DNA from: an uncultured Marinoscillum sp. | GTDB lineage: Bacteria > Bacteroidota > Bacteroidia > Cytophagales > Cyclobacteriaceae | NCBI GenBank assembly: GCA_964351625.1 | Contig: CAYGOV010000017.1 | Span: forward strand, 4,054-68,053 | Length of the DNA stretch: 64,000 nucleotides | Direction: 5' to 3' | Shown: in pieces, positions 31,382 through 64,000 of the stretch | How positions within the stretch are numbered: the first letter of the stretch is position 1 | Layout of the letters: every line of letters starts with the position of its first letter | Translations under genes and position numbers: made by a program | The notes under the pieces: generated by a model | What the model was told of the DNA's origin: nothing | What the model saw: only the letters and a program-made list of their open reading frames with translations | Databases searched by the model: none

Positions 31382-32482
31382 CTAAGCTGACTTGGAGATG
31401 TAAAGATCGGAGTTATTACCAGAATTAGACTTAGGCTTTTCCTTTCTTAATCTGATCAAACGAAGTTGTAGACCTAGAACTAATAAACCACAGAAAAGAC
31501 CTATAGCCAATAGAAGGACCCCATTCCCTAAATGGCTATTTAAAGATAGTGTTCCGAATAACACCGTAAGGTTAAACAAAAGCAGAGTGATTGTTACTTG
31601 TCGATCTGAGAACCCTAATCTTAATAGTTCGTGATGAAGATGCCGACGATCCGGATCCAATGGGTTCTGTCCGTGCCAAAATCGAATAATGAATACTCTT
31701 GTTGTATCCACAATAGGCAAGATTAACGCGGCGGCTGCCAGTGCTACTGTAGCCTTAATTTCGAAAATTCCGAAGTAAGAGGATGGTGAGATATTAATAA
31801 ATTGAATTGCGCAGGTAGAAACGACAAATCCGATTAGCATAGACCCTGTATCTCCCATGAAAATTTTCGCGGGATGCCAATTAAAAAACAAAAAAGCGAA
31901 CGTAGCACCCGCTAAAGAAGCAGATAGCGCAGCAAAAGCCCCATCACCATTCAAATAGAAAACGATTCCAAAAAAGGTCAAAATAAGTAGACCCACAGAG
32001 CCCGCAAGACCATCAATACCATCGATGAGGTTAAAACTATTAGTAAGAGCAACCAAAACGAAAACACTAAATAGGAAAGTGAACCAAGCCGGCATTTCGC
32101 TAACCCCCATTATCCCATAAAAGCCATCGAGTTGAATATCGGAAAATTGGACAACCAAAAATGCAGCAAATACTTGGGCAAATAATTTATGTTTAGCGAT
32201 CAAAACAGATATATCATCACGAATACCCATGAAAAAAATAACTAAAATACCAAAGAGGAGATATTTCAATTGAATCAATTCAACGAAGGAAATCGAGAAA
32301 AGAAGTGCAATTATAAATCCAAATAGAATCGCCACGCCTCCTAAAACAGGTGTAGAAACGGAGTGTGCCTTTCTTATGTCTGGATTGTCTAATAAATTTA
32401 TAGACTTACTCACCTTAATGACCAAAGGCAAAAGCATAAGAGTAATAAAGAAGGAAGAAACTGTAGCTATTATTATACTCAT
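31382..32482 (-). CDS. WecA/MraY-family undecaprenyl-phosphate HexNAc-1-P transferase
   Basis: DDI, NSFNLIDGIDGL, FMGDTGS and HLHH motifs; multi-TM. Confidence 0.9.
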   Translation of the reverse strand: MSIIIATVSSFFITLMLLPLVIKVSKSINLLDNPDIRKAHSVSTPVLGGVAILFGFIIALLFSISFVELIQLKYLLFGILVIFFMGIRDDISVLIAKHKLFAQVFAAFLVVQFSDIQLDGFYGIMGVSEMPAWFTFLFSVFVLVALTNSFNLIDGIDGLAGSVGLLILTFFGIVFYLNGDGAFAALSASLAGATFAFLFFNWHPAKIFMGDTGSMLIGFVVSTCAIQFINISPSSYFGIFEIKATVALAAAALILPIVDTTRVFIIRFWHGQNPLDPDRRHLHHELLRLGFSDRQVTITLLLFNLTVLFGTLSLNSHLGNGVLLLAIGLFCGLLVLGLQLRLIRLRKEKPKSNSGNNSDLYISKSA

Positions 32483-32571
32483 ATAGTCGACTTAAATAAG
32501 TCAATATGTGAAAATAATACTAAATAATTAGACTATTCCATTAAATAAGACGAGACCCTTGTATTTATCGA

Positions 32572-33957
32572 CTAATAGGCATTTTCACTGCCTTTCAGAA
32601 TAGAGATCAATGTTAAAGCAATGATTTTCACGTCAAATACCAATGACCAATTTTTGACATAGAAACGGTCAAGTCGAACTCTACCACTCATATCACTAAA
32701 AACTGAAGTTTCACCTCTGAAGCCCTTAGCTTGAGCAAGGCCTGTAATGCCAGGCTTTACTGCGTGTCTCTGTATGAAGCGATCAATCTTGGGTTGGAAC
32801 TGTTCATTAAGCTTAATAGGATGAGGTCTTGGACCGACAACCGACATATCCCCCAAAAACACATTAATGAATTGAGGCAACTCATCAATACTTGTTTTCC
32901 GAAGTATTGCTCCAATCTTTGTTATCCGAGGGTCATTTTTGGTCGCCTGCTTAGAATCTGATTCATTGTTCACAACCATAGTTCGAAACTTCCAGCATAG
33001 AAATGGACGATTGTCTCTTCCATTTCTGCTTTGTTTAAAGAAAACAGGTCCTTTCGATTCAAGTTTTATTAAAAGACTTATGACAGGAATCAACCATGAA
33101 AAAATAAAGATCAACACAAGGGAGGAAAAAATAATATCGAAAAAACGCTTAATAAATTGATTTGCAAGGCTATCCAAGGGAATGGCCCCAACATTGATAA
33201 TTGGAATATCTCCATAACGTTGAATACTTAGGTTCTTATTACCCAATTTACTAAACTGAGAAACTATTTTAACCTTGATTAAATTATTCTCCGCAAAATC
33301 AATGAGACGTTTAATTTCGTCATCATATAACCTCGGCAAGCAGCAAAAAATAACATCAACGGTATTCGATTTTACATAATGCTGTATATCTAAGACTTTA
33401 CCTAGAAAGCGACCTCTAGCCTCCTCTGGGCTATTATCAAAATAACCTAAAAACTTATACCCAACAGCAGGATTGAATCTGAAGAACCTTTCCAAATCTG
33501 TAGCTGTATCACCATAACCCACAATTACGACATTCCTTAAATTATATCCCTTACTGCGATAGTATCGAATAAAATAATGCCAAATAGACCTCCAAAAAAT
33601 TAGGAAGAATGTGAAAACCAAGTAGGAAACAAAAAGATGTTGTCGTGAATAATAGAAAGGCTTAGCAATGAACCATAATGCAAAAACAATTGACAGATTA
33701 ATCACCAAAGCGGTAAGCACTTTGTTTAAGTGATCAATCAAGCGGTTTTCCCTACTGATTTCTTGCAGATTTGTGGCGAAAAAAATGATTAGCCAAGTAG
33801 CATTTAATATTACTTGAAGCACCAAGTAATTCTCATTGGTGTAGAAAGGGCTCCCAAATCGATTGATATTAGCTACTATTATTCCTAGATTTAGACAGAA
33901 TACGTCTGCAAAAAGAAATAGAATAGGAAAATAATTAGAATATCTGTGCGACGACAT
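32572..33957 (-). CDS. wcaJ: Undecaprenyl-phosphate glucose phosphotransferase (WcaJ-type)
   Basis: 4 TM, CoA-binding-like middle, KRFFDI, KFRTM, SIDELPQF, VGPRP and KPGITGLAQ motifs. The ATG at 33957 is preferred because a TATATTTG promoter (33976-33983, minus strand) overlaps the longer start. Confidence 0.92.
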   Translation of the reverse strand: MSSHRYSNYFPILFLFADVFCLNLGIIVANINRFGSPFYTNENYLVLQVILNATWLIIFFATNLQEISRENRLIDHLNKVLTALVINLSIVFALWFIAKPFYYSRQHLFVSYLVFTFFLIFWRSIWHYFIRYYRSKGYNLRNVVIVGYGDTATDLERFFRFNPAVGYKFLGYFDNSPEEARGRFLGKVLDIQHYVKSNTVDVIFCCLPRLYDDEIKRLIDFAENNLIKVKIVSQFSKLGNKNLSIQRYGDIPIINVGAIPLDSLANQFIKRFFDIIFSSLVLIFIFSWLIPVISLLIKLESKGPVFFKQSRNGRDNRPFLCWKFRTMVVNNESDSKQATKNDPRITKIGAILRKTSIDELPQFINVFLGDMSVVGPRPHPIKLNEQFQPKIDRFIQRHAVKPGITGLAQAKGFRGETSVFSDMSGRVRLDRFYVKNWSLVFDVKIIALTLISILKGSENAY

Positions 33958-34007
33958 CTCTTTAAAAATCAATGGCAAATATAAATATTATTCAATATAC
34001 GCAATGT

Positions 34008-34015
34008 TAAATTTG
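34008..34015 (+). promoter_or_regulatory. -7 promoter element upstream of the exosortase remnant
   Basis: TAAATTTG(CA), a perfect TAnnTTTG match 48 bp before the ATG at 34063. Confidence 0.55.
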
Positions 34016-34062
34016 CATAATGTCCTTTACTAATTGATTATCTTGAAATCTTAATACTGCTT

Positions 34063-34212: not shown

Positions 34213-34273
34213 TCCAACTTTCCTCTGAGAAGCTAGAAGTAGGGCACTCCTTGTCAGGCATTCTAAGCAATCT

Positions 34274-35203
34274 TCACCACTCAGAATTATCCACAGCTTC
34301 ATAAACAGCTCGAATACCATCCTCCAAACCAATCTTAGCTTTCCACCCCAGGGCATTAATGCGACTACTGTCCATAAGCTTACGAGGCGTCCCATCAGGT
34401 TTGTCCGTATTAAACACAATCTCCCCAGAGTAACCTACAATTCTCTTCACGGTCAAGGCCAAATCCTTAATAGTCAAATCTTCTCCATAACCCAAATTAA
34501 TCGTCTGTCCATCACTATAGTTATCCATTAAGAACAAACAGGCTTCTGCCAAATCATCCACATGTAAAAATTCTCGCATTGGCTCGCCTGTACCCCAAAT
34601 CTCTACCTCACTTTTGCCTTCCTGCTTTGCGGTATGAAATTTCCTAATCAAAGCTGGCAAGACATGTGAATTATTCAAGTCATAGTTGTCATTCGGACCA
34701 TACAAGTTGGTAGGCATGGCGCTGATAAAATCAGAACCATATTGATCTCGGTAGGTCTCACACAACTTTATCCCAGCGATTTTCGCAATGGCATAGGGTT
34801 CATTAGTGGATTCCAAAGTTCCCGTGAGGAGACTATCTTCTCGAATGGGCTGTTCCGCTAATTTTGGATAGATACAAGAACTCCCCAGAAATAATAGTTT
34901 TCTTACGTTATTTATATACGAAGCATGGATAACATTCGCTTCCATCATCAAGTTTTCATAGAGAAATGCCCCACGATAAACACTATTAGCAAGTATACCT
35001 CCAACCTTCGCTGCAGCTAGAAAAACATATTCTGGTTTTTCTAGCTCAAAGAATCTTTGAACAGATTTTTGATCCACAAGATTTAATTCTTTAGAAGTAC
35101 GATATATAAGGCTTGTATAGCCTTCTTTTTTCAGTAACCTAACAAGCGCAGAGCCCACCATTCCACGGTGACCAGCGATGTATATCTTTGATGACCTATT
35201 CAT
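34274..35203 (-). CDS. fcl: GDP-L-fucose synthase
   Basis: [38 protein letters not shown] and MPTNLYGP motifs. Confidence 0.96.
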
Positions 35204-35258
35204 TAATCAGGTATTGTAGTAATTATGATTATGCTCATGATGAAGGTGAGGTAAACAT

Positions 35259-35512: not shown

Positions 35513-36625
35513 CTATTCCGCTTGTTTCAAAATATCGTGCCCGCCTTCTAGGAGATACTTATCTCGCTCAAACAATTTCAAATCACTTGCCATCATTTCT
35601 TTCACTAATGCAGCTAAATCATACTCAGGTACCCAACCTAATTTATCTTTGGCCTTCGAAGCATCTCCAATTAGCAACTCCACTTCCGTGGGTCTAAAGT
35701 ATTTAGGGTCAATTTTAATCACTTCCTGACCTAGTTTAAATGCGTAGTTACTGTTTAAAGAACTTAAAACTGTTCCTACTTCCTCTACACCAGTTCCCCT
35801 AAATTCTAATTCAACACCAACTTCTCTAAACGCCATCCTCATAAACTCACGGATAGGTGTAGTGATACCAGTAGCAAGCACAAAATCTTCTGGTTTTTCT
35901 TGCTGGAGCATGAGCCACATTCCCCTAACATAATCTTTGGCATGCCCCCAATCCCTTTTTGAATCTAGGTTACCCATATAGACACAATCCTGAAGTCCCA
36001 TCGCCATCTTGGCCACTGCTCTTGTAATTTTACGCGTCACAAATGTTTCACCTCTTAATGGAGATTCATGATTAAAAAGGATACCATTGCAGGCATACAT
36101 ATCATAAGCCTCTCGATAATTTACCGTGATCCAATAGGCATATAACTTAGCAACACCATAGGGAGAACGAGGGTAAAAAGGGGTAGTCTCGGATTGGGGA
36201 ACCTCCTGAACCAAGCCAAACAATTCCGAGGTAGACGCTTGATATATTTTTGTCTTCTTCGTAAGCCCAAGGAGCTTTACCGCTTCCAATAATCTCATAG
36301 TCCCCAGACCATCTACATCCGCCACATACTCAGGGGTTTCAAAACTCACCCGAACATGCGACATGGCTCCTAAATTGTATATTTCATGAGGCTGTATCTC
36401 CTGAATTAATCGGGTTAGATTCATCGAATCAGTTAAGTCTCCATAATGAAGGAAAAATCGTGGATTAACTCCATGTAGATCTTGATATAAATGGTCAATA
36501 CGATCTGTATTAAAGGAGGAAGCCCTGCGTTTAATCCCGTGTACCTCATAACCCTTTTCTAAAAGAAGTTCACTTAAATAGGCCCCGTCTTGTCCTGTAA
36601 TTCCTGTAATAAGTGCTTTTTTCAT
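35513..36625 (-). CDS. gmd: GDP-mannose 4,6-dehydratase
   Basis: [37 protein letters not shown] and [16 protein letters not shown] motifs. Confidence 0.97.
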
Positions 36626-36645
36626 CTTTTTTAGAAAATACAACC

Positions 36646-37173
36646 CTAATTCCGTGATTTAATATGCTTGCATGGATTCCCAGCACTAATTGAATACTCT
36701 TTAACATTTTTGGTAACAATTGACCCTGCACCTATTATTGAATGATCACCTATTTGCACTCCTGGTAGAATAATTGCATTTGCCCCAATCCAAACATCAT
36801 TCCCAATGATTGTTTCATAATGCCTCTTGCCTTGTTTTTGGATAGGGATATCGAGTGATACAAATTCATGATTACGACAGTAAATTTTGACATCAGGGCC
36901 CATTATCACATTATTTCCTATAGTAGCATTCGCTTGGATCATACACCTTGTTCCTAATTCAGATTCATTACCCACTTTAATATTAGGTGAGTAATCTGCT
37001 CCGCTTTTGACTCTGATATTTTTACCGCATTTTAGGATCGCGTATGAAGTAAGTTTATTTCTAATCCAAGGAAAAAAAAGTGCATAGGGACGATAATCTT
37101 CAGGAGTATTTCTGAAAAAAAGGAGATAAATCAAGTAAGCAAATAATTTAAATGGATTCCTCTTGACTTTCAT
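36646..37173 (-). CDS. Hexapeptide-repeat O-acetyltransferase
   Basis: [33 protein letters not shown]...AGNP left-handed beta-helix. Confidence 0.9.
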
Positions 37174-38177
37174 TTTACTAGTCTTTTCCTAATTGTAGAA
37201 ACTGCATTCTTCATTCGACTCCAATTTAAAAGGAGTGCTATTGCTAACTGAATTGGTAATATAAAACTATAGTAAACTCTCTTTATTATTGAGGAATCAA
37301 GTTTCTCAATTTCATAGCCTAGGCTTCTCATCTTATCACCACATATATTTTGAGCAATTTCTGCCTCCGTGCTACTCAAGCCACTCTTCCATCTGCCTAG
37401 ACTTTTCGTTGAAATACCTCTTTCTTTATAGCTACTCTTATCCATTGAAGACCCCATGTAATGAATGTCAAGCATATCACCAGAATATTCGACATCAACA
37501 AATTTGCAAATCTCCTTCAGATATTTTTCTGGTTCCTCTACTAAATTTTCGTATTTACAATGAAATAGGTTGGCTTTATTTTTATGTTTTTCAAATTGAT
37601 TAATGGAGGCATTCCACAATCTTGAAATAACTGCCGGATGATAATTTAATTTCGTCCTAATTACATCTAGTTTTGAAAAAACACCTTTTCGAGCCTTCCA
37701 TTTATTCTTCTGAGAAAGCAGAATATCTCGCGGATCCCTAACCAAGTACAGAAACTTTGCTCCCTTTATTAAATCACTTATTTCATCAATGTAAAATTGA
37801 TTTCTTGGTGTTGGGTCACATAAAAAATTTGACCCTCCGTAATATTTTAAAGCCATTAAATATAGCTCCACAGGATGATAAGAAGTCTTTTCTCCAATTA
37901 TTTCCTCAGCCTTTTGTAAATAGAGTGTCTTCTCACCTAAAGTTAGTTTTGCATTACCTCTATATCCCTTCTCGCCAATACACAATAATGTTGTCAGCAT
38001 ATCCTGAGCTTCTTTTAAACTGAGATGCTTATCCGAAAAATCATAGAATTGTTCGAAAAAATGCATCTCAGGAAAGCAAAATATATTCGGATTCTTATTC
38101 AGAATCGTTGTTAACATTTTTGTCCCACTCCTTGAATTGCCTACTATAAAAATAATTTTTTGACCTTCGAGCTTCAT
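37170..38177 (-). CDS. PAPS-dependent sulfotransferase (1 of 4)
   Basis: 5'-PSB motif VGNSRSGTKML; DPTP; YLVRDPRDILLS 3'-PB motif; KYENLVEEP. Confidence 0.88.
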   Translation of the reverse strand: MKLEGQKIIFIVGNSRSGTKMLTTILNKNPNIFCFPEMHFFEQFYDFSDKHLSLKEAQDMLTTLLCIGEKGYRGNAKLTLGEKTLYLQKAEEIIGEKTSYHPVELYLMALKYYGGSNFLCDPTPRNQFYIDEISDLIKGAKFLYLVRDPRDILLSQKNKWKARKGVFSKLDVIRTKLNYHPAVISRLWNASINQFEKHKNKANLFHCKYENLVEEPEKYLKEICKFVDVEYSGDMLDIHYMGSSMDKSSYKERGISTKSLGRWKSGLSSTEAEIAQNICGDKMRSLGYEIEKLDSSIIKRVYYSFILPIQLAIALLLNWSRMKNAVSTIRKRLVK

Positions 38178-39211
38178 ACAACTAATAGTTTTTTATAAAC
38201 TTCAACCGTTTTATTACACACTGAGTCAAGGCTATATAAGTTCGTCATAGCTTCAGCCTTTTTTGACATACTGTTGTATTGATCTTCGCCAATTGCCATT
38301 GCCTCCTTTAAAGTATTTGCTAACCCTTCAGGTGTAAGTTCATCAACAATCAGCCCATTTGACAGGTGAGATACTTGTTCTGCCAAACCTCCAACGTTAG
38401 AGACAATAGCGGGTGTTCCGCAAAACATAGCTTCGGATGCTACTAATCCAAAAGGCTCATGCCGAGATGGGAGCACAAAAAATTTGGAGGCTGAGTACAA
38501 ATCGCTGAGCTCAGGTTGAGTCTTATTGATATGAATGTCTACATTAAATCTATCCTTTAATGCTTCAATAGCTTCTTGGTATTCACCAGACCCCACAAAC
38601 GCTAGTCGAATTGAGTGATCATCTAGCTCCTTAATGGCATCAATCATCAGATCTGTCCCTTTTCGATGAATAAACTTAGCTACGAAAATGAAGTCATAGC
38701 TTTTTTCGATTTTTTTTGGATAAAAAACATTAACATCAATCCCCGCGCACATGATTAAATCATTTGCTCGTCCTAGTTTTTCATTGATCTCATGAGATGT
38801 TTCCTCGCCAACAGAGATGGAGTAATCAATCTTCTCGGCCAGATGGCTGAATATACCTTGTGAAAGTCTTCCTTTAAAGAAATTATGAATATCACCACCA
38901 TGAAATGTGACAACTATTTTGGCTTTTCGATGAAAGAGCTTGTAGAGATAAGCATGTAGATAAAGAGGGAAGAAATAATGAACATGAATGATGTCGTAGC
39001 GTTTAAAAAGGTTAGGTATAAATCGTAGAGTAGCCACTATATATTTCAAAATGCTACCAAGTTTGCTTGTAAACACCCGACGCATGAAAAATATATCTAC
39101 ATTGTCTCTGCCAAGTAAAGAACCCAATTTTTCAAACTGATTTTTTACAAAAATCCCAGCAAAAGGTAACTGCTCAGATGGATAAATATTGGAAATAATT
39201 AATATTTTCAT
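38174..39211 (-). CDS. GT4 glycosyltransferase
   Basis: HVHY, TFHG, RKG and PSRHEPFGLVASEAM motifs. Confidence 0.9.
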   Translation of the reverse strand: MKILIISNIYPSEQLPFAGIFVKNQFEKLGSLLGRDNVDIFFMRRVFTSKLGSILKYIVATLRFIPNLFKRYDIIHVHYFFPLYLHAYLYKLFHRKAKIVVTFHGGDIHNFFKGRLSQGIFSHLAEKIDYSISVGEETSHEINEKLGRANDLIMCAGIDVNVFYPKKIEKSYDFIFVAKFIHRKGTDLMIDAIKELDDHSIRLAFVGSGEYQEAIEALKDRFNVDIHINKTQPELSDLYSASKFFVLPSRHEPFGLVASEAMFCGTPAIVSNVGGLAEQVSHLSNGLIVDELTPEGLANTLKEAMAIGEDQYNSMSKKAEAMTNLYSLDSVCNKTVEVYKKLLVV

Positions 39212-39266: not shown

Positions 39267-40082
39267 ATGAAATTGGTTCTTACCTTATCGATGTGTGGCT
39301 TTCTTTTTATAAACGTGTATTGCCAGAAATTGCAGACCTCATTTGAGGATAAAGAAATAAATAAAGCCATTTTTGATGCCCGCAGGCTCTGCTGCGAACA
39401 CTCTATAAGTTTTGATAGCAGTATCATGGCTGACGGTAGGTATAGTTTAAAATTTACCTTAAATAGAGAAGACGAATTTTATCGGGACAATGGTCAACTT
39501 AGAAAAACAGCCAATAAAAGAGCTGAAATAGGAACAATTGATAATGTTGACAGCCTATTATACAAGTACGGTAGTGAATATTGGTATAGTTTCAAAGTGT
39601 ATATACCAGAGACTTGGATTGATGAAGAAAACATCGAGGAAGAAACCCGACAAAATAGAGATATAGTATCACAATGGCATTGGAAAAAAGAAGATACAGA
39701 TGAGTCTGGAAAACCTGCTTTGGCGATAGCTGTTAATGGGGATAAATGGACCGTGATAAATTCCTATCAAACCGACAATACTCTTGATAAAGCATCAGAA
39801 ATTTCGTCGAGTTACTTTGCAGGCAAAGTGCAGAAAGGAACGTGGGTGACATGGGTAGTGAATGCGCTTTGGTCCAATGAAGAAAATATTGGGTTTATTA
39901 AAATCTGGAAAGACGAAATTTTAATAGCAAATCTAAAAGGCTCTAATTGCAATAAAGATAGAAACATTATTTACAAATTTGGCCTATACAAACCCCGCTG
40001 GACCTCCAGAAAAACGAATGTAAGCACTCGAGAGATCTATTTTGATGATATCAAAATATCTCAAGAACCTTTTGGAAAATAA
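39267..40082 (+). CDS. Exported polysaccharide lyase, heparin-lyase-I-like beta-jelly-roll (Polysacc_lyase family)
   Basis: Signal peptide; KRAEI, YWYSFKVYIP, SQWH, GFIKIWKD, YKFGLYK and IYFDDIKI motifs. Confidence 0.75.
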   Translation: MKLVLTLSMCGFLFINVYCQKLQTSFEDKEINKAIFDARRLCCEHSISFDSSIMADGRYSLKFTLNREDEFYRDNGQLRKTANKRAEIGTIDNVDSLLYKYGSEYWYSFKVYIPETWIDEENIEEETRQNRDIVSQWHWKKEDTDESGKPALAIAVNGDKWTVINSYQTDNTLDKASEISSSYFAGKVQKGTWVTWVVNALWSNEENIGFIKIWKDEILIANLKGSNCNKDRNIIYKFGLYKPRWTSRKTNVSTREIYFDDIKISQEPFGK

Positions 40083-40173: not shown

Positions 40174-40205
40174 GGGTAGTTTAGCCACTTTTGATTCCGC
40201 GCCTC

Positions 40206-55474: not shown

Positions 55475-56157
55475 CATTAAAAAGAAATGACATTGAAGGT
55501 GACTCTGGAATTCTAATGTCGTTGGAGAATAAACCCAACCTTTTGGTTTCATTTGGAGGAATTAGACAAGGTATAGGAATACCCACCTTTGAGTTTTTCA
55601 ATTCTCTATCGGATATTAATTGTGATAAGGTGTTTATTAGAGACTTCAATCAAGCTTGGTATCAATTAGGTGTTGATGATGAAATAAATTCATGGAATGA
55701 ATTAAAAAATATTTTAGAAAAACTAATAGAAGATAATAAATATAAGAATGTGCTGTTTCTAGGTAATTCTATGGGTGGATATGCAGCTATGATGTTCGGC
55801 ACAATGCTACAAGTGAATCAAGTAGTTGCATTTGCGCCACAGACATTCATCAATAAAAGCAAAAGGCTTCTACATTTAGATTTTAGGTGGGAAAAGCAAA
55901 TAAGAAGCGTACATCAAAGCGCTAAGAAGTCCGGTTTTATTTTAAATCTGAAATCTCACCTTAAAAATCTTAAATCTTCAACCCTGATAGACATCTATTT
56001 CTCCGATATACACAGATTAGATAGAATTCATGCAAACCAATTATCCAAATCAAAAAATGTTACTTTACATCCACTTAAAGAAGGGGGTCATGCAGTAGTT
56101 AAAGGATTAAGGGACAGTGGAGCTCTTAAAAAGATTATAAAAGACACCTTTTCTTAA
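55471..56157 (+). CDS. Alpha/beta-hydrolase-fold protein
   Basis: GNSMGG nucleophile elbow, AFAPQT and GGH motifs. Confidence 0.65.
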   Translation: MTLKRNDIEGDSGILMSLENKPNLLVSFGGIRQGIGIPTFEFFNSLSDINCDKVFIRDFNQAWYQLGVDDEINSWNELKNILEKLIEDNKYKNVLFLGNSMGGYAAMMFGTMLQVNQVVAFAPQTFINKSKRLLHLDFRWEKQIRSVHQSAKKSGFILNLKSHLKNLKSSTLIDIYFSDIHRLDRIHANQLSKSKNVTLHPLKEGGHAVVKGLRDSGALKKIIKDTFS

Positions 56158-56161
56158 TTTG

Positions 56162-57493
56162 TTATTTATTGATAAATGGGATGTAAAAAGTTCTAATCTT
56201 GTAGAATTTCCACACTAGAATCAAATTTCCTACATTCAGGATTATTTTAGCGGCAACTGCTCCCATCGCTGCACCGATGAGACCATATCTTGGAATCAAA
56301 TAAATATTGATCAGAACATTTCCGGTTACGGAGAATATTTGAACAACATTGATAAATTTTTGCTTCCCGCTCATTGTTAAAATTTGACCTACAGGTCCAA
56401 TATAGGAAGAGATAAAAAAGCCTGTTGCTAAAATCATAAGAGAGGAGTGTCCCTGGGTAAATTCCTCGCCAAAAATTTGCAAGATCGGATTACGTAAAAA
56501 AAACAGTATTATCAAAGCAGGCAAGACAGTATAAAAAATAATTTTTGTCGCTTTTAAAGAAATATTTTTAATCTTATTTAGATCATTTTCATAATAAGCT
56601 CTAGAAATTTGAGCGCCGGAAATAGAATTTAAAGCCAATTCTGGAAGCTGCAATAATGTGCTTATCTTCAATGCTACATTATAAATCCCAACACTAAATT
56701 CAGACATGTAAATCCCAAGCATGATACCATCCAACCACCCGTTGATGAATATCATAGTTGTTGTAGGTATTTGGGGCAACGAATAACTAATTAGTTCTTT
56801 AAATGAGAAGTTCTTGTCAGGTGCTTCTTTAATCGAATTCAATTTTCTTATCCACATAAAAGAACTAATAAAAGCGGCAATATACAAAGCGATCAAATAG
56901 GCTATAACCCCCATCATCGATGTATCCATAAAATCCATACACCCACAAACCAACAAGAATGATATGGTCACTAAGCTGAATAGGTTTCTTGATGCATTTG
57001 AAAAGAAACTATAAGGGCCTATCTGCTTTAATCCTCTAAAATTCTGAGCATTGACTGAAATCAAAGACAAAGGAAGTACCCCAAACGATATCAATTGAAA
57101 TGCATCTATCAGTTTCTCATTATCAAATACCTCTATTGCCAGTTTGTAACTAAAAAAGTATAATAATAAATTGACCAACACTGATAAAGAACAGATAATC
57201 AACAGCACATTCACGTACAATGGCTTTACCTGTTGAATACTTCCATTGGTTTCAAACTTTGAAACCAATCGCATGGATGCTATATCAGTTCCAAACTTTC
57301 CAAGAATTGACGAAATGGTCAGAACTGCTAAAGAAAGAGAAAAAATCCCCCATGCTTCTGCTCCGTAATTACGTGTGACAATAAATGTAAACACATAAGC
57401 ACATCCAAGGCCAAAAAGTTTGATCACAAACGCAAGTGCACCACCGCGGAGTAATTCAGATTTATTAAATCTTTGAATAACCTTCCTAATCAT
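56162..57493 (-). CDS. wzx: Wzx flippase
   Basis: About 12 TM MATE-like; YGAEAWGIFSL, VGIYNVALKI and LIPRYGLIGAAMG motifs. Confidence 0.9.
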   Translation of the reverse strand: MIRKVIQRFNKSELLRGGALAFVIKLFGLGCAYVFTFIVTRNYGAEAWGIFSLSLAVLTISSILGKFGTDIASMRLVSKFETNGSIQQVKPLYVNVLLIICSLSVLVNLLLYFFSYKLAIEVFDNEKLIDAFQLISFGVLPLSLISVNAQNFRGLKQIGPYSFFSNASRNLFSLVTISFLLVCGCMDFMDTSMMGVIAYLIALYIAAFISSFMWIRKLNSIKEAPDKNFSFKELISYSLPQIPTTTMIFINGWLDGIMLGIYMSEFSVGIYNVALKISTLLQLPELALNSISGAQISRAYYENDLNKIKNISLKATKIIFYTVLPALIILFFLRNPILQIFGEEFTQGHSSLMILATGFFISSYIGPVGQILTMSGKQKFINVVQIFSVTGNVLINIYLIPRYGLIGAAMGAVAAKIILNVGNLILVWKFYKIRTFYIPFINK

Positions 57494-58673
57494 TTAAAAC
57501 TTTGGAATAAAATTCAATAAGTTTTTTACTTTCTACTTCCCAAGAAAGATTATTTTTAACTCGATCATATCCGAATTCTCCCATTTCAATCCTTTTATTG
57601 CTATTATCTAATAATGAAGAAATAGCATCTGCAAATGCTTGGATATTGTTATGCTCAACATATAGCGAAGCATCTTGTGCGGAAAATCGACCTTCATCCA
57701 AATCAAACTGAACAATTGGTTTCTTCAGAGCCATATACTCCATGATTTTATTCATGGTTGACATATTATTCATTGCCGAGGGTTTATCTGGATTTACACA
57801 AACATCAGCAGTATTTAAAATCGCAAGTAAGTCTTCGTCCGAAACCCTTCCATAAAAATCAAAAATATCATCAACATTTGAGTTTTTTGCATCTAACTTG
57901 ATTTGAGCAAGGTAAATGCCAGATCCTATAATTGCATATCGTACATCATCCCTTTTCTTTCTAAGCTCAACTGCAGCCTCAACTAATAAATCTAACCCCT
58001 CAGACTCTCCGATTACGCCTACATAGCCTATCAGATATTTCTTTCCATGTTTATATTTTGAATCTCCCGAAAGGATTTTAAGTTTATCCAATTTAGGCCC
58101 ACTTCTAACAATTGAAACTCTTGACGGAATCATACCACCTCGATCAATCGCAACTTTCCGATAAGATTCGTTAGTTGAAATGGACCAATTTGCGACTTTA
58201 AAATTCAATTTCTCTACAAAGCACAATGCTTGATAAAAAAAACCCTTTTTATCGTATTTAGAAATGTAAAATTCTGGGTTCACATCATGATGGTCAAAAA
58301 CATATTTCACGCCAAAAGCTTTAAAGAAAAAGGCAACAATGAATACTAAGTCTGGCGGATTGCAACCGTGAATAACATGAAAACGCTTTTTGAAAAAAAT
58401 ATTCAAGGATAACACAAACCAATAAAAAATTGCCTGTATATACTCTACGATATATCCCAAAGCTCCACTTCCCTCCCTAAGTGGATGCCTATAGATATCT
58501 ATCCCATTTATAATCTCTCTACTTTTAGAATAACCTTTCATTTTAGGGCAGATAATACTAATATCTGCACCATTCTCTTTCAGCGTGTTTGCTTCTTGCC
58601 ACACACGCCTATCAAAAGGCACTGGTAGGTTTTCAACGATTATTAGAATGTGTTTACCAGCAAATTCCTTCAT
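57486..58673 (-). CDS. GT4 glycosyltransferase
   Basis: VENLPVPFDRRVWQEA, HGCNPPD and NKIMEYMALKKP motifs. Confidence 0.9.
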   Translation of the reverse strand: MKEFAGKHILIIVENLPVPFDRRVWQEANTLKENGADISIICPKMKGYSKSREIINGIDIYRHPLREGSGALGYIVEYIQAIFYWFVLSLNIFFKKRFHVIHGCNPPDLVFIVAFFFKAFGVKYVFDHHDVNPEFYISKYDKKGFFYQALCFVEKLNFKVANWSISTNESYRKVAIDRGGMIPSRVSIVRSGPKLDKLKILSGDSKYKHGKKYLIGYVGVIGESEGLDLLVEAAVELRKKRDDVRYAIIGSGIYLAQIKLDAKNSNVDDIFDFYGRVSDEDLLAILNTADVCVNPDKPSAMNNMSTMNKIMEYMALKKPIVQFDLDEGRFSAQDASLYVEHNNIQAFADAISSLLDNSNKRIEMGEFGYDRVKNNLSWEVESKKLIEFYSKVLND

Positions 58674-59961
58674 AATTTTCTTTAGAAACTCTTTCAGAGT
58701 CTATTCTTACTAGATCAATAATCTGAATTTCCTTAGGAAGTCTTTTTAGTACGTCACCAAATTCATCAGACTTATTACCAATTACGAGTATATCAATATC
58801 AGTAATCACTTCATCTAAATTGCTCACTAACAGGCTTGAAATATGAGGTATGTGATTAGTGAGAAATTCCTTATTCTTACCCCTTAAAAAGGATAGATTC
58901 ACATTTTTATCATACAACTTCAGTTCATAACCCTTACCGATTAAGGTCTCAATTAGTGTTACAATTGGAGACTCTCTTAGATCATCAGTTCCTCCCTTAA
59001 AACTAAACCCCAAAAACCCTACTCTTTTCTTACCAAGTTTCATAACCATCTCAAGTCCTCTAGACACCTGATATTCGTTACTTTCAATAAGACTATTAAG
59101 GAGAGGTGTTTTAAGATCCAACTGCTTCGCTTTAAAGTTGAGTCCCCTGACATCTTTAGGCAAGCATGAACCACCAAATGCAAAACCAGGTTTCATGTAA
59201 TAAGAAGATAAATTGAGCTTTTTATCCTTAGCCACAATATCCATCACTACATGACCGTCCACTCCCAAACTTTTACAAATATTTCCAATTTCATTAGCAA
59301 AAGTTACTTTAACAGCATGGAAATTGTTATTTGCATACTTAATAAGTTCAGACTCTTTTGGTTTTAATTCGTAAAATGGCGCATCAATGTCATTATACAT
59401 TTCTTTCATTAGGTCCGTTGCTTTTTTAGAATTACTACCAGTAATTGTATACGGTGGATTCCAAAAATCTGCAATTGCTGTTCCTTCTCGTAAAAATTCC
59501 GGATTAGATACAACCGCAAAATCATCACTAGTTTTACCTGAAATTTCACTAATTAATTTGCTGCATTCGTCAATTGTCCCAGGTATTATTGTACTTCTAA
59601 TAGCAATGACATGAAACTTATCCTTCCTCTTTAAAGCTTCTCCAATCTCTTGACATACTGAATAAATGTATGCTAGATTAATACTCCCATTTATTTGACT
59701 AGGTGTGCCTACACAAATTAAGGAAACTTCAGAATTTGCTATTGCAAATTCCAAATCGTCTGTCGCTTTCAACTTTTTCTCTTTTACTCCATCAGAGATA
59801 TAGTCCTCTAATTCATGCTCTATTATTGGGGCTTTTCCAGCATTTATTAAGTCAATCTTGTTTTTATCAAGATCAACACCAATTACATTGTGTCCTGCTT
59901 TAGCAAAACAACCACAGGATACGGCTCCTACGTAACCCAAACCAAATACACTAATATTCAT
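58654..59961 (-). CDS. algD: GDP-mannose 6-dehydrogenase (AlgD-type nucleotide-sugar dehydrogenase)
   Basis: ISVFGLGYVG, ICVGTPS, NPEFLREG, GFAFGGSCLPKDVR and the C-terminal EGICW shared with Pseudomonas AlgD (from recall). Confidence 0.8.
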   Translation of the reverse strand: MNISVFGLGYVGAVSCGCFAKAGHNVIGVDLDKNKIDLINAGKAPIIEHELEDYISDGVKEKKLKATDDLEFAIANSEVSLICVGTPSQINGSINLAYIYSVCQEIGEALKRKDKFHVIAIRSTIIPGTIDECSKLISEISGKTSDDFAVVSNPEFLREGTAIADFWNPPYTITGSNSKKATDLMKEMYNDIDAPFYELKPKESELIKYANNNFHAVKVTFANEIGNICKSLGVDGHVVMDIVAKDKKLNLSSYYMKPGFAFGGSCLPKDVRGLNFKAKQLDLKTPLLNSLIESNEYQVSRGLEMVMKLGKKRVGFLGFSFKGGTDDLRESPIVTLIETLIGKGYELKLYDKNVNLSFLRGKNKEFLTNHIPHISSLLVSNLDEVITDIDILVIGNKSDEFGDVLKRLPKEIQIIDLVRIDSERVSKENYEGICW

Positions 59962-60800
59962 TATCTATAAAAAGGATATGTTAAAAATCGGATCACTATA
60001 TTCTTGAAATTTGTCATCTCCAGTTCTTGATCCTTTCGAACCGACAAAAATTCTGAGAGTCTTATTCGATTCCCCTCAAACAAATGGCCTACAGTAAATG
60101 TATTTTTTTCATAAAAATCATTCTCATCAAAAACTAAATCAAATGATGATGAAATTCTCTTAAGTGACAAAAAGGTATTATTTACCAAGTCTTCATATTT
60201 TATTTTAAGACAATCAACTTTTCGAAGCTTTAAGTAGGCAAATGATAATTGGCATAAAAAATTGCACCCAAGATAATATAATAATGCAGAGACAAAACTT
60301 TTTCTGGGTTGCATTAAGCCTCTTTTTGAAAATGATTTTATAACCGACTTGGGGTCTTTAATAACGTAAAGTACCTTAACTTCTAAATCAGGAATGGCAC
60401 TTAAATGGATGGCTCTAGCTGGATACTTTGAGGAATCTACTATAATTTCTGATTCAAATTTATCAAATATTTTAACAAGTAATGATTTTGTTTTTTCTAA
60501 ATATTCAGACTTGTTTCGTGAAGTAATAAACGGTAACCAAGTATAGTATTCAAATCTTCTCAAAGTTTTATTAAACTCTTGATACTCATCCTTAGACATG
60601 GCCAGTGAATTACCAATTTGGTGCCATAATTTATATGTGGGATGATCTTTGTCCAATCCTATGACATTCCCTTCATTTCTATAGAACCTATTTATCTCTC
60701 CACAGCTTTCTATTCCATCTAAATTTCCAATTAAAATGTCTGTAAGTGTTGTGCCGCTCCTTCCGCAACCCATTATATAGATAACTGTTCTCTTTTTCAA
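59961..60800 (-). CDS. PAPS-dependent sulfotransferase (4 of 4)
   Basis: YIMGCGRSGTTL, IIVDSSK, YVIKDPKSVIKS and IKYEDLV motifs. Confidence 0.85.
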   Translation of the reverse strand: MKKRTVIYIMGCGRSGTTLTDILIGNLDGIESCGEINRFYRNEGNVIGLDKDHPTYKLWHQIGNSLAMSKDEYQEFNKTLRRFEYYTWLPFITSRNKSEYLEKTKSLLVKIFDKFESEIIVDSSKYPARAIHLSAIPDLEVKVLYVIKDPKSVIKSFSKRGLMQPRKSFVSALLYYLGCNFLCQLSFAYLKLRKVDCLKIKYEDLVNNTFLSLKRISSSFDLVFDENDFYEKNTFTVGHLFEGNRIRLSEFLSVRKDQELEMTNFKNIVIRFLTYPFYR

Positions 60801-61882
60801 CTTGCAAAAACAGCTTTAATATTTCTAATAAGAATTAATAAAATTGAAACTACGAGACCTATAAACAGGAACACAAACACAATCATAATCCGACTCGGTT
60901 CACTCTTTATAACCGGTATAGTAACTGGATCAAGCGTAGAAAAGACAGGTATATTATCATTTAATTGAAGCTTTACTGACTCTCTTTGTTGTGCTAATTG
61001 ATTATACACATTGAAAGCCAAATTGTATTCAAACTGCAATCTCTCTACTTCCGTTTTAGCTCTCGATGTACTAATATTTATATTTCTATCTCTGAATTCT
61101 GCTAATTTTCTTTCAGCATTTTCAAAATCATTTTTCCTTTCCTTTAGCTGTTGATCGACAAATTCAAGCTGAACTCTGCTTTTCTTTACAGTATAATTTT
61201 TAACGAATTCAGTGATATATAAAAGAGTAAATTTATTGACGTAAGCAGCAACTTTAGGGTCTTGCATTTTCACCTCAATACTGATTGTATTTAAATCCCA
61301 ATCCATTAACACAAATATTCTTTTCTTTAAATCCTCTGCAACATAGAGTTCATTTATTGTCAGAAACATAATATCGTTTTCTAGATCAATATTCTCTGAT
61401 ACAGCAGTATCGTCTTTCAACCAATTGATTATAGTAGCAGGGACAGAAAGCAAATACGAAAAAGCACTTACCTTTCTATCATTCAAATAATAATCATGCA
61501 GGGAAGTAGTTTTATTTAATTCTTCAAAATAATATTCAGAGTGCATAATCTCATATAAAAATGGAACACTTTGAGATATACTTTGATATAGCCCCGGGCT
61601 TATTCCCTGACTTCCAGACATGCTACCCAAATTCAATCCAGCAAGCGAAGCTAGCCCGCCTAGAGAACCATTGATTTTACTATCACTACTATTTGATTCA
61701 GCAATTAACGTTGAGGTTGAACTGTATTCATTTGGTGTTGTTATCGCTACAAAAATTCCCAAAACGATAAATATACATGTCAATTTGATAATAAACCACC
61801 GACGATTCCAAAATAGAATTCCAATTGCAAGCAAATCAATTTCATTATCAGAAACAATTTTGATTTTTTCTTCTCTCATCAT
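60797..61882 (-). CDS. wzz: Wzz chain-length determinant (PCP-1 type)
   Basis: EIDLLAI, two TM flanking a coiled-coil periplasmic region, PVIKSEPSR proline motif. No tyrosine-kinase domain. Confidence 0.88.
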   Translation of the reverse strand: MMREEKIKIVSDNEIDLLAIGILFWNRRWFIIKLTCIFIVLGIFVAITTPNEYSSTSTLIAESNSSDSKINGSLGGLASLAGLNLGSMSGSQGISPGLYQSISQSVPFLYEIMHSEYYFEELNKTTSLHDYYLNDRKVSAFSYLLSVPATIINWLKDDTAVSENIDLENDIMFLTINELYVAEDLKKRIFVLMDWDLNTISIEVKMQDPKVAAYVNKFTLLYITEFVKNYTVKKSRVQLEFVDQQLKERKNDFENAERKLAEFRDRNINISTSRAKTEVERLQFEYNLAFNVYNQLAQQRESVKLQLNDNIPVFSTLDPVTIPVIKSEPSRIMIVFVFLFIGLVVSILLILIRNIKAVFAS

Positions 61883-61913
61883 TTTGCTACTAGACTATTA
61901 ATAATTCAGGCTC

Positions 61914-64000
61914 CTATCTCGATATTCTGTCAACAATCAATAACATAGTCAGAAGACCAGTTGACAAACTCATTATCCTTTCAGCAGAAATACCCTCGTT
62001 TGCTGGCTTTGAAGGAATCACTACACGTGAGCCTGGTTCAATCTTAGGGTAATCTTTAAACCATAAAAAACTTTTGGTGCTTGCTTTCCTCCCATTGGGG
62101 TAACTAACAAAAGCCCTTTTCTTTCGAGCATTGTCCGTAAACCCCCCCATTTGAGAAATCACGTCCTTAAACGAATCCTTAGTATCAAAAACAGTAGTTC
62201 CAGGCTCAAATACCTCTCCGGATACAACAACTATTTGAGATATCTTTGGAATGATAATTTCATCTCCATCCTTTACATAAATATCTGCATCCGACCCAGG
62301 TTTCTTTAACAGAACCTCAAAATTAACCCCTGATATTTCCGCCCCATCGCGTAATAATCGCCCACCCTTTAGGTATGCCAATTCTGTTGTACCTCCTGAT
62401 CTTAATAAGATATCAGAAACCCGTTCATTCTTATTCTGAATTACATATTTACCAGAATATTTTACTTGCCCCACGACACTCACTGTGCTATATGGATTAA
62501 AAAAAGGAGATTGTCTAATAGTAACTACGTCAAAAGGTTCAAGCAAAAATTGGCCATCCTTATCTTGCAATTTCAAAGTTTTGTCTACCGGGAACTGATA
62601 GGTTATGGCGCTTTTCAAAAAATCATCAGAATTGTCTTCCTTAGTTCTTCTAGCAACTTCTACAAAAGACTTAGCAGCTTGCTCAGTAAAACCACCCGCC
62701 ATCATAATAACGTCCTCCACTGTCAAACTATCATGAAAGCGAATCTCCTTTGGATCTCTCACCTCTCCTTGAACACTGACACTATACATACCTCGTAAAT
62801 CAAAAATGGAGGATATAATTACTACATCATTTGCTTGAAGTTCAAAATCTGAAACCCCTGAAAGGACATTGTCAATATCAAATTCAATATTTCGTAAGGT
62901 TAAATCTTTGTTTGACCGAACCACCTGACCTCTATCCCGGAATACATCAGCAGTAATGCCTTCTGCTTTAATTATCAATTCAGATAATTTCAAACCTTTA
63001 GTGTACTCATATTCACCGGGCCTATATACAGACCCCTTAATTGTGACAAGATTTTCATATATATCAACAATTCTGGAGATTCTTATTTCATCACCAGACT
63101 CCAATTCGAAATTATTGAAGTCTTCATTTTTGATAGTGAGAATTTTCCTAGCATTTTCTGTCGTTCTTCTAATCGTAACCAACTTTGTGTAAGCCTCATC
63201 TGTAACACCTCCTGCATAGTTGATAATTGTTTGAAGACTTTCAGTATCCTTCAATTCAAAAATCGCTGAATTCTTTATTTCGCCACCGATTTTAACCCTT
63301 TTACCATAATATGGCACCCTTATTACATCTTGGTCTCTTAGAGAAACATTATTTTCTGTCTCCCCTTTCAATAAAAAATCATAAATATCAAAAGTTGTAA
63401 TCAATTTACCGGATCTGTATACCTGAATATCTCTATAGGTTCCATCTCTTGCTGGACCACCCGCTCTAAATAGAGCATGAAGTACATTGCTCATGGATGA
63501 GATAGTGTAAGTTCCCGGATTTTTTACTTCTCCTATAACATTAACCTTAATGCTCCGAATGCTACCTAGAGTCACCTGGCCATAGGTATTTTGATCTCCA
63601 TAGTTGGTATCGTTTAATCCTGCATAAATCTTAGTGAGTCTTTTTAGTAATCTCGATGATGCCTCCTCTATACTCAAACCGCTCAAAAAGACAGGTCCAA
63701 GATTGGGAATCTTTACAACCCCCTCAGGTCCAATTAGCAATTGATAGGTCTTCTCTGAAGCTCCCCAAATATCTATGATCAACTCGTCTCCTGCTCCCAA
63801 AACATAATTCTCTGGAGTTGGGATATTGACGCTTGGCGAAAAGCTTAAAGCGCTGTTATTAAAAATTTGAGCTCCGAATATTGCTCCACCAATCTCATCA
63901 TTATCCTTATTAGTGATATCTAAATCTTCTAAATCAATACCATAATCTTCAAGCTCCGCTCTTAATTGAGATTCATCAAGTTGTGAATTCGAACCTTGAG
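61914..64000 (-). CDS. Wza/SLBB-repeat polysaccharide export protein; start lies beyond the right edge
   Basis: Frame stays open past 63800 to the window end (..FSPSVNIPTPENYVLGAGDEL..); multiple V.V.GEV..PG SLBB repeats. Confidence 0.9.
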   Translation of the reverse strand, partial: QGSNSQLDESQLRAELEDYGIDLEDLDITNKDNDEIGGAIFGAQIFNNSALSFSPSVNIPTPENYVLGAGDELIIDIWGASEKTYQLLIGPEGVVKIPNLGPVFLSGLSIEEASSRLLKRLTKIYAGLNDTNYGDQNTYGQVTLGSIRSIKVNVIGEVKNPGTYTISSMSNVLHALFRAGGPARDGTYRDIQVYRSGKLITTFDIYDFLLKGETENNVSLRDQDVIRVPYYGKRVKIGGEIKNSAIFELKDTESLQTIINYAGGVTDEAYTKLVTIRRTTENARKILTIKNEDFNNFELESGDEIRISRIVDIYENLVTIKGSVYRPGEYEYTKGLKLSELIIKAEGITADVFRDRGQVVRSNKDLTLRNIEFDIDNVLSGVSDFELQANDVVIISSIFDLRGMYSVSVQGEVRDPKEIRFHDSLTVEDVIMMAGGFTEQAAKSFVEVARRTKEDNSDDFLKSAITYQFPVDKTLKLQDKDGQFLLEPFDVVTIRQSPFFNPYSTVSVVGQVKYSGKYVIQNKNERVSDILLRSGGTTELAYLKGGRLLRDGAEISGVNFEVLLKKPGSDADIYVKDGDEIIIPKISQIVVVSGEVFEPGTTVFDTKDSFKDVISQMGGFTDNARKKRAFVSYPNGRKASTKSFLWFKDYPKIEPGSRVVIPSKPANEGISAERIMSLSTGLLTMLLIVDRISR

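Follow-up and report, generated by a model that had tools for sequence, protein, structure and literature searches.

The stretch of DNA analysed here (the window, 64,000 nucleotides; C17:4054-68053 of a draft genome of 4.9 Mb and 40% GC) comes from an uncultured Marinoscillum sp., a gliding member of the Bacteroidota, and a polysaccharide locus of the Wzx/Wzy/Wzz/Wza kind occupies its part from 31.4 to 64 kb, with genes for four sulfotransferases and a hexapeptide acetyltransferase. Judged from its gene content, this locus very probably produces a sulfated exopolysaccharide (EPS). It also encodes a set of degradative enzymes, including a putative exported polysaccharide lyase, two sulfatases with a signal peptide and the C-terminal domain (CTD) of type IX secretion system (T9SS) cargo, and an acetylesterase lipoprotein. 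The chances appear evenly balanced that the locus also carries out post-export processing of the cell's own sulfated polymer. The pairing of sulfotransferases and sulfatases is real but rare in the family. All of these genes had been listed in the original prediction, and all were found to be present, intact and at the positions given there; the inventory had overlooked a 2212-aa T9SS protein, an exosortase X (XrtX) gene pair, and a module for 3'-phosphoadenosine 5'-phosphosulfate (PAPS) past the window. Domain calls for the locus genes are Pfam and NCBIfam profile matches, and signal peptides were judged by eye throughout.

The 5'-phosphosulfate-binding loop (SRSGTK, QKGGTT, HKTGTT and GRSGTT) and the 3'-phosphate-binding element could be read in all four sulfotransferases. 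Directly past wza, outside the window, are cysQ, cysN, a 23S-IVP-family gene, cysD and cysC (PF01507, PF00009, PF01583 and PF00459). Because cysQ, cysN, cysD and cysC lie directly behind wza, the locus has its own PAPS supply and recycling of 3'-phosphoadenosine 5'-phosphate. The gene between cysN and cysD encodes a 118-aa protein of the 23S rRNA-intervening-sequence family (four-helix bundle). Beyond cysC, the same contig carries two more genes of the UDP-glucose 6-dehydrogenase (UGDH) family, an epimerase gene, rmlA and rmlB. Sulfotransferases together with PAPS genes are a hallmark of sulfated polysaccharide clusters (PMC11641403), and both elements are present here, i.e. in-cluster sulfotransferases with PAPS motifs and the adjoining cysD/cysN/cysC plus cysQ. 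Since this combination is a published hallmark, the product would almost certainly be a multiply sulfated, O-acetylated glycan; the original prediction of such a polymer is thus supported by the sulfotransferases and the PAPS genes.

The two sulfatases, SulfA and SulfB, contain an intact Cys-type formylglycine motif as well as the DD, K-x-H region, PH.P, SDHG and K residues. The best PDB match of SulfA is 6hhm (2.6e-85), i.e. P18_S1_7, an endo-acting ulvan 2-sulfo-xylose sulfatase in the pathway of Formosa agariphila (PMC9096561). SulfB is nearest to SGSH, the founding member of S1_8 (PDB 4mhx, 1e-36); the S1_8 enzyme is the exo-acting partner within the same ulvan pathway (PMC9096561). Judged by these likenesses, SulfA and SulfB were possibly recruited as an endo/exo pair. 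Both align with the solved enzymes 6hhm and 4mhx across the whole catalytic domain. A pseudo-sulfatase, or a phosphotransferase of the alkaline phosphatase superfamily, was rejected on account of the intact formylglycine motifs and this full-length alignment to solved sulfatases. The formylglycine-generating enzyme family (PF03781) gave five above-cut-off matches at four loci, two of them in frames of about 360 aa; GldJ and GldK share this Pfam family. Regarding export, SulfA, SulfB and the 2212-aa protein all score over the cut-offs of PF18962 and TIGR04183, and the genome encodes a T9SS with a SprA translocon (2458 bits) and at least 56 open reading frames (ORFs) that bear the CTD. SulfA and SulfB are the sole CTD-tagged sulfatases among about eight sulfatase-superfamily genes of the genome.

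The third enzyme of this group is a SASA/CE6-like esterase, with PDB matches to 1zmb (2e-14) and NanS. SulfA and the SASA-SulfB pair are encoded divergently on opposite strands, with 108 bp between them, as a unit separate from the biosynthetic operons. The GC content of the degradative genes (30-38%) is as low as that of the cassette, compared with 40% for the genome. It is about as probable as not, on these sequence grounds, that the sulfatases and the esterase act on the polymer of their own locus.

Orthologues of SulfA, SulfB and the SASA esterase were found only in the same cassette of one metagenomic relative, whose contigs (L019, L020 and L090) come from three samples (ERR14847148, ERZ23495322 and ERZ23796841). 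This relative (L020/L090) holds all four sulfotransferase positions and four sulfatases, and the formylglycine motif is present in four of four. Its esterase (L090) has a cleaner lipobox, VSGC. The sequence identities between the relative and the window are listed in Table 1; the glycosyltransferases GT_a and GT_b share 80% and 84%, and the housekeeping protein PheS shares 78%. The segment from the acetyltransferase through sulfotransferase 1, the glycosyltransferase, the lyase and the giant protein to SulfA is inverted as one piece between the two loci, and the Wzz-sulfotransferase 4-UGDH end has been replaced in the relative (36-59% identity). At synonymous sites the divergence has reached saturation (dS of at least 1.1, or undefined), and dN lies at 0.08-0.37. 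The saturated dS, the low dN and the inversion together indicate that the degradative genes stayed intact in the cassette through a long period of divergence and through rearrangement. Furthermore, some core genes (Wzy 86%, sulfotransferase 1 86%, GT_b 84% and XrtX 84%) are closer between the window and L090/L020 than PheS is; together with the divergent Wzz-sulfotransferase 4-UGDH end, this suggests horizontal exchange of the core with a breakpoint near the UGDH gene.

Comparison with related loci also showed how the degradative genes are distributed. The original prediction described two halves of a biosynthetic locus with a block between them; this view was not borne out, as the parts of the 39-52 kb stretch separate in related loci. 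Judged by these distributions, the stretch is a mosaic of three parts with differing histories, not one unit. A single inserted island was rejected for the same reason, and the ORF lists at its borders contain no insertion sequence (IS) elements, integrase or tRNA. Each of the five sulfated variants of the locus (the window, L020/L090, L025, G009 and L088) encodes a PF14099 lyase, and in all but G009, where none was detected, a large T9SS CTD protein stands alongside it. Sulfatases and the esterase occur in two of the five, the window and the metagenomic relative. In locus L025 (PheS 68%), the biosynthetic genes stand in the same order and are accompanied by the lyase and a CTD protein, but the sulfatases, the esterase, the XrtX pair and gmd/fcl are missing; the sulfotransferase 1 and acetyltransferase of L025 are 70% and 75% identical to those of the window. 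In G009, a genome of the same genus, the lyase (44% identity) lies directly behind wza-cysQ. The L088 locus belongs to a Cyclobacteriaceae metagenome-assembled genome (GCA_040218015.1, JAVJQB010000060.1); the PF14099 lyase encoded there at positions 11081-13282 is 733 aa long and contains a dockerin-like segment as well as a T9SS CTD. Its gene adjoins xrtX and a set of GT4, sulfotransferase and UGDH genes, and copies of IS66 separate it from a cadherin-type CTD protein. A tie between sulfatase presence and the GDP-fucose genes, both of which are absent from L025, was considered and dropped, since Gmd and Fcl occur without sulfatases in L087 and L094.

The exported lyase is the most widely shared of the degradative enzymes in these variants. 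The structural model of this protein is of moderate confidence (pLDDT 65.8, pTM 0.71), and its top Foldseek matches are the PL20 glucuronan lyase 2zzj (2.4e-13), the PL13 heparinase I and PL7 alginate lyases, with about 15% identity to solved lyases. These fold relatives (PL20, PL13 and PL7) are all β-jelly-roll uronate lyases, a likeness that fits the UGDH genes of the locus. Because the lyase is Sec-exported without a CTD, it is probably periplasmic or outer-membrane-associated. Orthologues were found only within the EPS cassette of metagenomic relatives, at 78%, 70% and 67% identity, the first value being that of L019/L020/L090 and the last that of L025. The subfamily is scarce: a word search of 5.8 billion proteins returned four, and two representatives with E<1e-30 were found among 1.8 billion. 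No orthologue was found in a 200-genome sample of the family, and a lyase-profile scan of JGI metagenomes gave a best identity of 31% and no further locus of the same type. Such rarity would be expected of a polymer-specific enzyme. The lyase gene and a GT4 gene are divergent with an intergenic gap of 55 bp, and the same divergent pairing is found in L019/L090 and L025. The predicted lyase is likely to act on the EPS of its own locus, a stronger case than that for the sulfatases and the esterase.

A mechanism for the locus can be proposed, in which the steps of assembly, sulfation, acetylation and export follow from domain content and the processing steps are inferred. Repeat units would be assembled on undecaprenyl phosphate, with GDP-fucose, UDP-glucuronate and probably dTDP-rhamnose as the sugar donors. 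The four cytoplasmic PAPS-dependent sulfotransferases, fed by the adjoining CysDNC/CysQ, would sulfate these units, and the hexapeptide acetyltransferase would O-acetylate them in the cytoplasm. Wzx would then flip the units, Wzy would polymerise them under the control of Wzz, and Wza would export the polymer. The Sec-exported β-jelly-roll uronate lyase might cleave the polymer at uronates for periplasmic clearance, trimming or release, like AlgL or ExoK. Outside the cell, the T9SS-exported sulfatases and the esterase lipoprotein might strip part of the sulfate and acetyl groups, so that the cell could remodel, loosen, shed or recycle its own sulfated matrix. The putative erasing enzymes (uronate lyase, O-sulfatases and O-acetylesterase) would thus mirror the writing enzymes (UGDH, sulfotransferases and acetyltransferase).

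The sulfatases resemble enzymes of catabolic type that acquired a T9SS tag and were drawn into the EPS cassette. Homologues next closest to SulfA (53-55% identity) lack a CTD and are located in catabolic clusters. For example, six or seven sulfatases accompany a GH29 fucosidase and BD-FAE esterases in one cluster, and GH26 and GH10 genes are found with a hybrid two-component regulator in another; the SulfA homologue of the closest species-representative genome is beside a GH2 gene and a gene of the major facilitator superfamily (MFS) of transporters. The genome itself also encodes a SulfA paralogue (G000:C19:53672-55279; L085 9670-11280) without a CTD in a conventional catabolic locus rich in glycoside hydrolases, and its neighbours include two GH43+CBM6 proteins, GH97, GH31, a GH5-like protein, a BD-FAE esterase and a Sde182-like protein. 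These homologues, together with the ulvan endo-sulfatase 6HHM as the best solved relative of SulfA, favour another explanation, namely that the sulfatases, the esterase and possibly the lyase are foraging enzymes which degrade foreign glycans (ulvan- or fucoidan-like, with sulfate and acetyl groups) and are housed in a recombination-prone, horizontally exchanged capsule locus with no functional tie to its product. More distant PF14099 lyases on two metagenome contigs point the same way, being located beside sulfatases with no EPS genes seen there. The absence of sulfatases from the syntenic L025 and from 40 of 40 other sulfotransferase regions is also in line with foraging. On the other side, neither a glycoside hydrolase nor a gene for sugar catabolism was found in the window locus, which also lacks a transporter and a regulator. 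The original prediction that the window holds no SusC/SusD pair was confirmed; none was found in the 31-64 kb part, nor in the 15 kb beyond, and the lone TonB-dependent receptor of the window (18637-21087) has no SusD neighbour. Identity as a polysaccharide utilization locus (PUL) was therefore rejected. Moreover, the genes are intact and under purifying selection, and another lineage has retained them in its cassette despite an inversion and the saturation of dS; SulfA and SulfB are the only sulfatases of the genome with the T9SS tag; and the lyase occurs in five sulfated variants, shares a 55-bp divergent region with a glycosyltransferase, and belongs to a subfamily far too rare for the targeting of an abundant algal polymer. 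Foraging by hitchhiking genes is on balance rather unlikely, yet it is the most serious of the alternatives considered.

Several further observations weigh against self-polymer processing. The sulfatases and the esterase are accessory, being missing from the otherwise syntenic L025, and neither enzyme was found in G009 and L088 within the stretch seen. The sulfatases diverge faster (56-67% identity) than the biosynthetic genes (78-86%). Both sulfatase-bearing loci share one ancestral arrangement, which represents one evolutionary event and not repeated convergence. The nearest other relatives of the sulfatases are catabolic, and the closest match among solved structures is a sulfatase for algal ulvan. 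Capsule loci are also hot spots of recombination, in which cargo genes can be carried along. The lyase model is also of only moderate confidence (pLDDT 66). Finally, 40 further sulfotransferase regions of the family (10.5-20 kb each, from about 30 genera) were compared, of which about 30 have glycosyltransferase, Wzx, WbaP or Cys neighbours. A sulfatase, PF14099 lyase or SASA esterase was found in none of the 40; the lyase was sought with a family hidden Markov model that recovered four of four positive controls. With two of the five sulfated variants and none of these regions containing them, the sulfatases and the esterase are no general feature. The search at unrelated sites, set as a refuting test in the original prediction, was in its favour: no relative carries the degradative block elsewhere, and the best matches are paralogues with 41-44% identity (SulfA in 40 relatives and 13 other genomes of the genus; the lyase in the 200-genome family sample and those 13). 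A sulfotransferase 1 profile scan of genome contigs gave just relatives with 24-35% identity (Desulfobulbales-type and one Bacteroidales fragment), and no new loci.

The wider family gives a context for this cassette. Five related genomes or contigs share the gene string IMPDH-SpoIIE-STAS-kinase-SurA-MoxR-pheS-WecA-like, followed by xrtX, its partner gene and wbaP. Downstream of wbaP the gene content diverges, for example into polysialyltransferase-like and CMP-sugar genes in one Marinoscillum genome; other variants at the pheS site contain a pyruvyl transferase in one case and a Sulfotransfer_2 gene in another. The shared string on the pheS side and the differing polysaccharide genes indicate a family-wide, serotype-like hypervariable EPS locus with XrtX as part of its backbone. 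By this comparison of gene orders, the window locus is a strain-specific version of a hypervariable EPS/capsule locus between pheS and wza-cysQNDC in Cyclobacteriaceae-like Cytophagales. Of 121 family genomes sampled, 80 encode PF13469 sulfotransferases, many of them beside glycosyltransferases, Wzx or cysDNC. Surface glycans that carry sulfate may be widespread in the family, although none seems to have been characterised. The hypervariable site (sialic-acid-like, pyruvylated and sulfated variants) and the many sulfated glycans of neighbours as common targets would suit enzymes used as weapons against the capsules or biofilm matrix of related competitors, or for regulated self-dispersal only, and export by the T9SS would agree with this. 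Such a role is improbable, as the enzymes are matched to the chemistry of the locus, are inherited with the cassette and would cut the polymer of the producer too, and neither an immunity gene nor a regulatory gene is evident.

The third CTD gene of the locus encodes the giant 2212-aa protein, which contains four β-propeller-like repeat regions (FNxDGTKL...Y.L..PYD motifs), about seven cadherin-like modules of about 100 aa, and immunoglobulin (Ig)-like modules. The CTD is its one confident Pfam domain, with weak hints of Lactonase-propeller, Cadherin_3 and Big_12. A catalytic domain was sought in this protein, and just sub-threshold propeller, cadherin and Ig hints were obtained. Relatives hold Ig/cadherin CTD proteins of 1226-1375 aa at the same lyase-side position, and the large proteins are not homologous across all variants. 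The giant adhesin-like protein probably shares its place of action, the surface layer, with the degradative enzymes. In Porphyromonas, T9SS cargo of type A is anchored by an anionic lipopolysaccharide (A-LPS). A comparable role for the anionic sulfated glycan, with the giant adhesin and both sulfatases displayed on it and not degrading it, could be imagined from the three CTD genes in one EPS locus, the large CTD protein in four locus variants, and the presence of a Wzy_C ('O-antigen ligase') domain protein and a WecA-type transferase. This is the least probable of the explanations, since nearly all of the 56 or more CTD proteins of the genome are encoded elsewhere, the lyase and the esterase without a CTD would be left unexplained, many family members have non-sulfated variants at the site, and no PorU/PorZ or A-LPS-type genes were seen at the locus. 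The usual place of the XrtX pair is between the WecA-like gene and wbaP beside pheS (L087, L089, L092, L093 and L094); in the window, the pair is shifted by about 20 kb into the locus, beside wzy. No candidate substrate of XrtX was recognised.

Table 1. Features of the sulfated EPS locus (positions in the window unless stated otherwise; identity refers to the metagenomic relative L019/L020/L090)
Feature	Position	Strand	Identity (%)	Evidence
WecA/MraY-type polyprenyl-phosphate sugar-phosphate transferase (Glycos_transf_4)	31382-32482	-		PF00953 3.7e-42
WbaP-type initiating phosphoglycosyltransferase (Bac_transf + CoA_binding_3)	32572-33978	-	75 (L020)	PF02397 6.9e-66
GDP-L-fucose synthase Fcl	34274-35203	-		NF047922 496 bits, under cut-off 500
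GDP-mannose 4,6-dehydratase Gmd	35513-36643	-		PF16363 5e-150
Hexapeptide (LbH) O-acetyltransferase, WbbJ/WcaF-like	36646-37173	-	83 (L090)	PF00132 6.5e-19; NCBIfam WbbJ/WcaF matches
Sulfotransferase 1, hydrophobic C-terminal tail	37170-38177	-	86 (L090)	PF13469 1.5e-24; motifs GNSRSGTK, RDPRD
GT4 glycosyltransferase, start 55 bp from divergent lyase gene	38174-39211	-		PF00534 2.1e-33
Polysaccharide lyase-fold protein, signal peptide, no CTD	39267-40082	+	78	PF14099 1.5e-37
2212-aa T9SS cargo, signal peptide, type A CTD	40191-46829	+		PF18962 5.5e-8
Sulfatase A (SulfA), S1 formylglycine, S1_7-like, signal peptide, T9SS CTD	46882-48603	-	67	PF00884 6e-49, PF16347, PF18962 1.8e-9; CSASR
SASA/CE6-like carbohydrate acetylesterase, predicted lipoprotein, lipobox	48712-49533	+	69 (L090)	PF03629 1.4e-34; GQSN motif
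Sulfatase B (SulfB), S1 formylglycine, signal peptide, T9SS CTD	49702-51357	+	56	PF00884 4.5e-37, PF18962 4.7e-11; CHPSR
XrtX-associated membrane protein	51410-51904	-		NF046082 31 bits, under cut-off 75; syntenic in 7 related loci
Exosortase X (XrtX)	51882-52439	-	84	NF046081 184.9 bits vs cut-off 170
Wzy_C-domain polymerase (or ligase)	52687-53961	-	86 (L090)	PF04932 8.2e-8, 32.6 bits, just over cut-off
Sulfotransferase 2	53945-54820	-	81	PF00685 5.6e-20; motif QKGGTT
Sulfotransferase 3	54866-55474	+	78	PF17784 1.9e-26; motif HKTGTT
Alpha/beta-fold serine hydrolase-like protein, no signal peptide	55471-56157	+		weak PF12146 match; GNSMGG
Wzx flippase	56162-57493	-	82	PF01943
GT4 glycosyltransferase	57486-58673	-		PF13692
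UDP-glucose 6-dehydrogenase family protein (UGDH)	58654-59961	-		PF03721/PF00984/PF03720
Sulfotransferase 4, weakest match	59961-60800	-		PF13469 29.7 bits vs cut-off 27; motif GCGRSGTT
Wzz chain-length determinant	60797-61882	-		PF02706/PF13807
Wza/OPX exporter, 766 aa	61914 to beyond window end	-		PF02563/SLBB
cysQ-cysN-cysD-cysC PAPS module	L013 4255-8355 = C17:68308-72408			

The gene order of the locus starts at 30.3 kb with pheS, followed by the WecA-type and WbaP-type genes, fcl, gmd, and the genes for the acetyltransferase, sulfotransferase 1 and a GT4 glycosyltransferase, all on the minus strand. The lyase and the 2212-aa protein (plus), SulfA (minus), and the SASA esterase and SulfB (plus) come next. 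They are followed by the XrtX-associated protein, XrtX, the Wzy_C protein and sulfotransferase 2 (all minus), by sulfotransferase 3 and an alpha/beta hydrolase (plus), and finally by Wzx, the second GT4 glycosyltransferase, UGDH, sulfotransferase 4, Wzz and Wza (all minus). Wza, Wzx, Wzy and Wzz are each encoded by a single copy in the genome. The WecA-type gene adjoins pheS in every related locus compared and was counted as a backbone gene. The alpha/beta hydrolase-like gene has a 4-bp overlap with sulfotransferase 3, and every orthologous cassette retains it (73-80% identity); the cytoplasmic product may act as an acyl esterase or transferase.

Bacterial polysaccharides with sulfate groups are scarce and difficult to obtain, and they are in demand as mimetics of glycosaminoglycans. 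To our knowledge, very few gene clusters for such polymers have been characterised, and none in Bacteroidota. The locus described here represents a compact toolkit of four sulfotransferases, a PAPS module, candidate S1_7-like and S1_8-like sulfatases, an acetylesterase and a rare lyase. If the substrate of these enzymes is the product of the same locus, orphan sulfatases and lyases could be assigned substrates directly. It would also provide a genetically tractable model of post-export editing of matrix charge, with a bearing on gliding, adhesion, biofilm shedding and the marine carbon and sulfur cycles. If the enzymes are foraging cargo instead, capsule loci can carry catabolic T9SS enzymes between lineages.

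Among the known systems, synechan (xss) of Synechocystis sp. PCC 6803 has the best characterised bacterial pathway for a sulfated EPS (PMC8205485). Like the locus of the window, it combines Wzx/Wzy-type assembly with in-cluster sulfotransferases; however, it is cyanobacterial and has neither a T9SS nor exosortase X, and no sulfatase, lyase or acetylesterase is named in its cluster (PMC8205485). The loci of Vibrio sp. KMM 8419 and Cobetia marina KMM 1449 also contain sulfotransferases and a cysNDC(Q) module, which is a second copy in these strains (PMC11641403, PMC11766843). Their polymers are of the rhamnose/uronate type, O-acylated and sulfated, and the loci vary between strains. These Gammaproteobacteria differ in their ABC-transporter/Kps export, and the papers mention no sulfatase or lyase. 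In the literature on synechan, Pontiella, Vibrio KMM 8419 and Cobetia KMM 1449, no EPS or capsular polysaccharide cluster for a sulfated polymer was found described with embedded sulfatases.

AlgL (alginate), ExoK/ExsH (succinoglycan), PslG, PelA and BcsZ are self-polymer glycanases encoded in EPS operons. In such systems a product-specific exported enzyme trims, clears or releases the polymer, and the PF14099 lyase fits this pattern, having only a Sec signal like AlgL. They differ in that they are not known to remove substituents installed in the cytoplasm (deacetylation by PelA is a partial exception), nor to include sulfatases or T9SS cargo. The original statement that no described system with this pairing is known holds for the characterised sulfated EPS and capsule clusters compared here; the theme of a lyase in an EPS locus was already known. 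Alteromonas infernus is reported to display lyase, hydrolase and sulfatase activities on its own sulfated, uronate-containing EPS GY785 (PMC6804119); however, these activities came from cell extracts, the genes were not placed in the EPS cluster in that study, and this Gammaproteobacterium has no T9SS. The ulvan locus of Formosa agariphila (P18_S1_7 and P32_S1_8; PMC9096561) also combines a lyase, S1_7 and S1_8 sulfatases and carbohydrate esterases. It differs, like PULs generally, by its SusC/SusD, glycoside hydrolases, transporters and regulators, whereas the enzymes of the window sit among glycosyltransferases and sulfotransferases and carry T9SS tags.

A conceptual parallel is found in animals, where Sulf1 and Sulf2 are extracellular heparan-sulfate 6-O-endosulfatases, i.e. 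secreted S1 enzymes. The shared concept is the post-export editing of a self-made sulfated glycan; this is an analogy only, with homology limited to family S1, and the animal enzymes are eukaryotic and differ in sulfatase subfamily and domain architecture. We tentatively suggest, as a possibility less probable than processing by this locus, that bacteria edit the sulfation and acetylation of self-made EPS after export: sulfotransferases and an acetyltransferase in the cytoplasm would write the pattern, endo/exo S1 sulfatases secreted by the T9SS and a surface esterase would erase selected groups, and a lyase would set chain length or release, as a prokaryotic counterpart to Sulf1/Sulf2. Sulfated EPS clusters and EPS loci with their own glycanase were known already; the unusual addition here is the T9SS sulfatases and the acetylesterase, which are kept in one relative.

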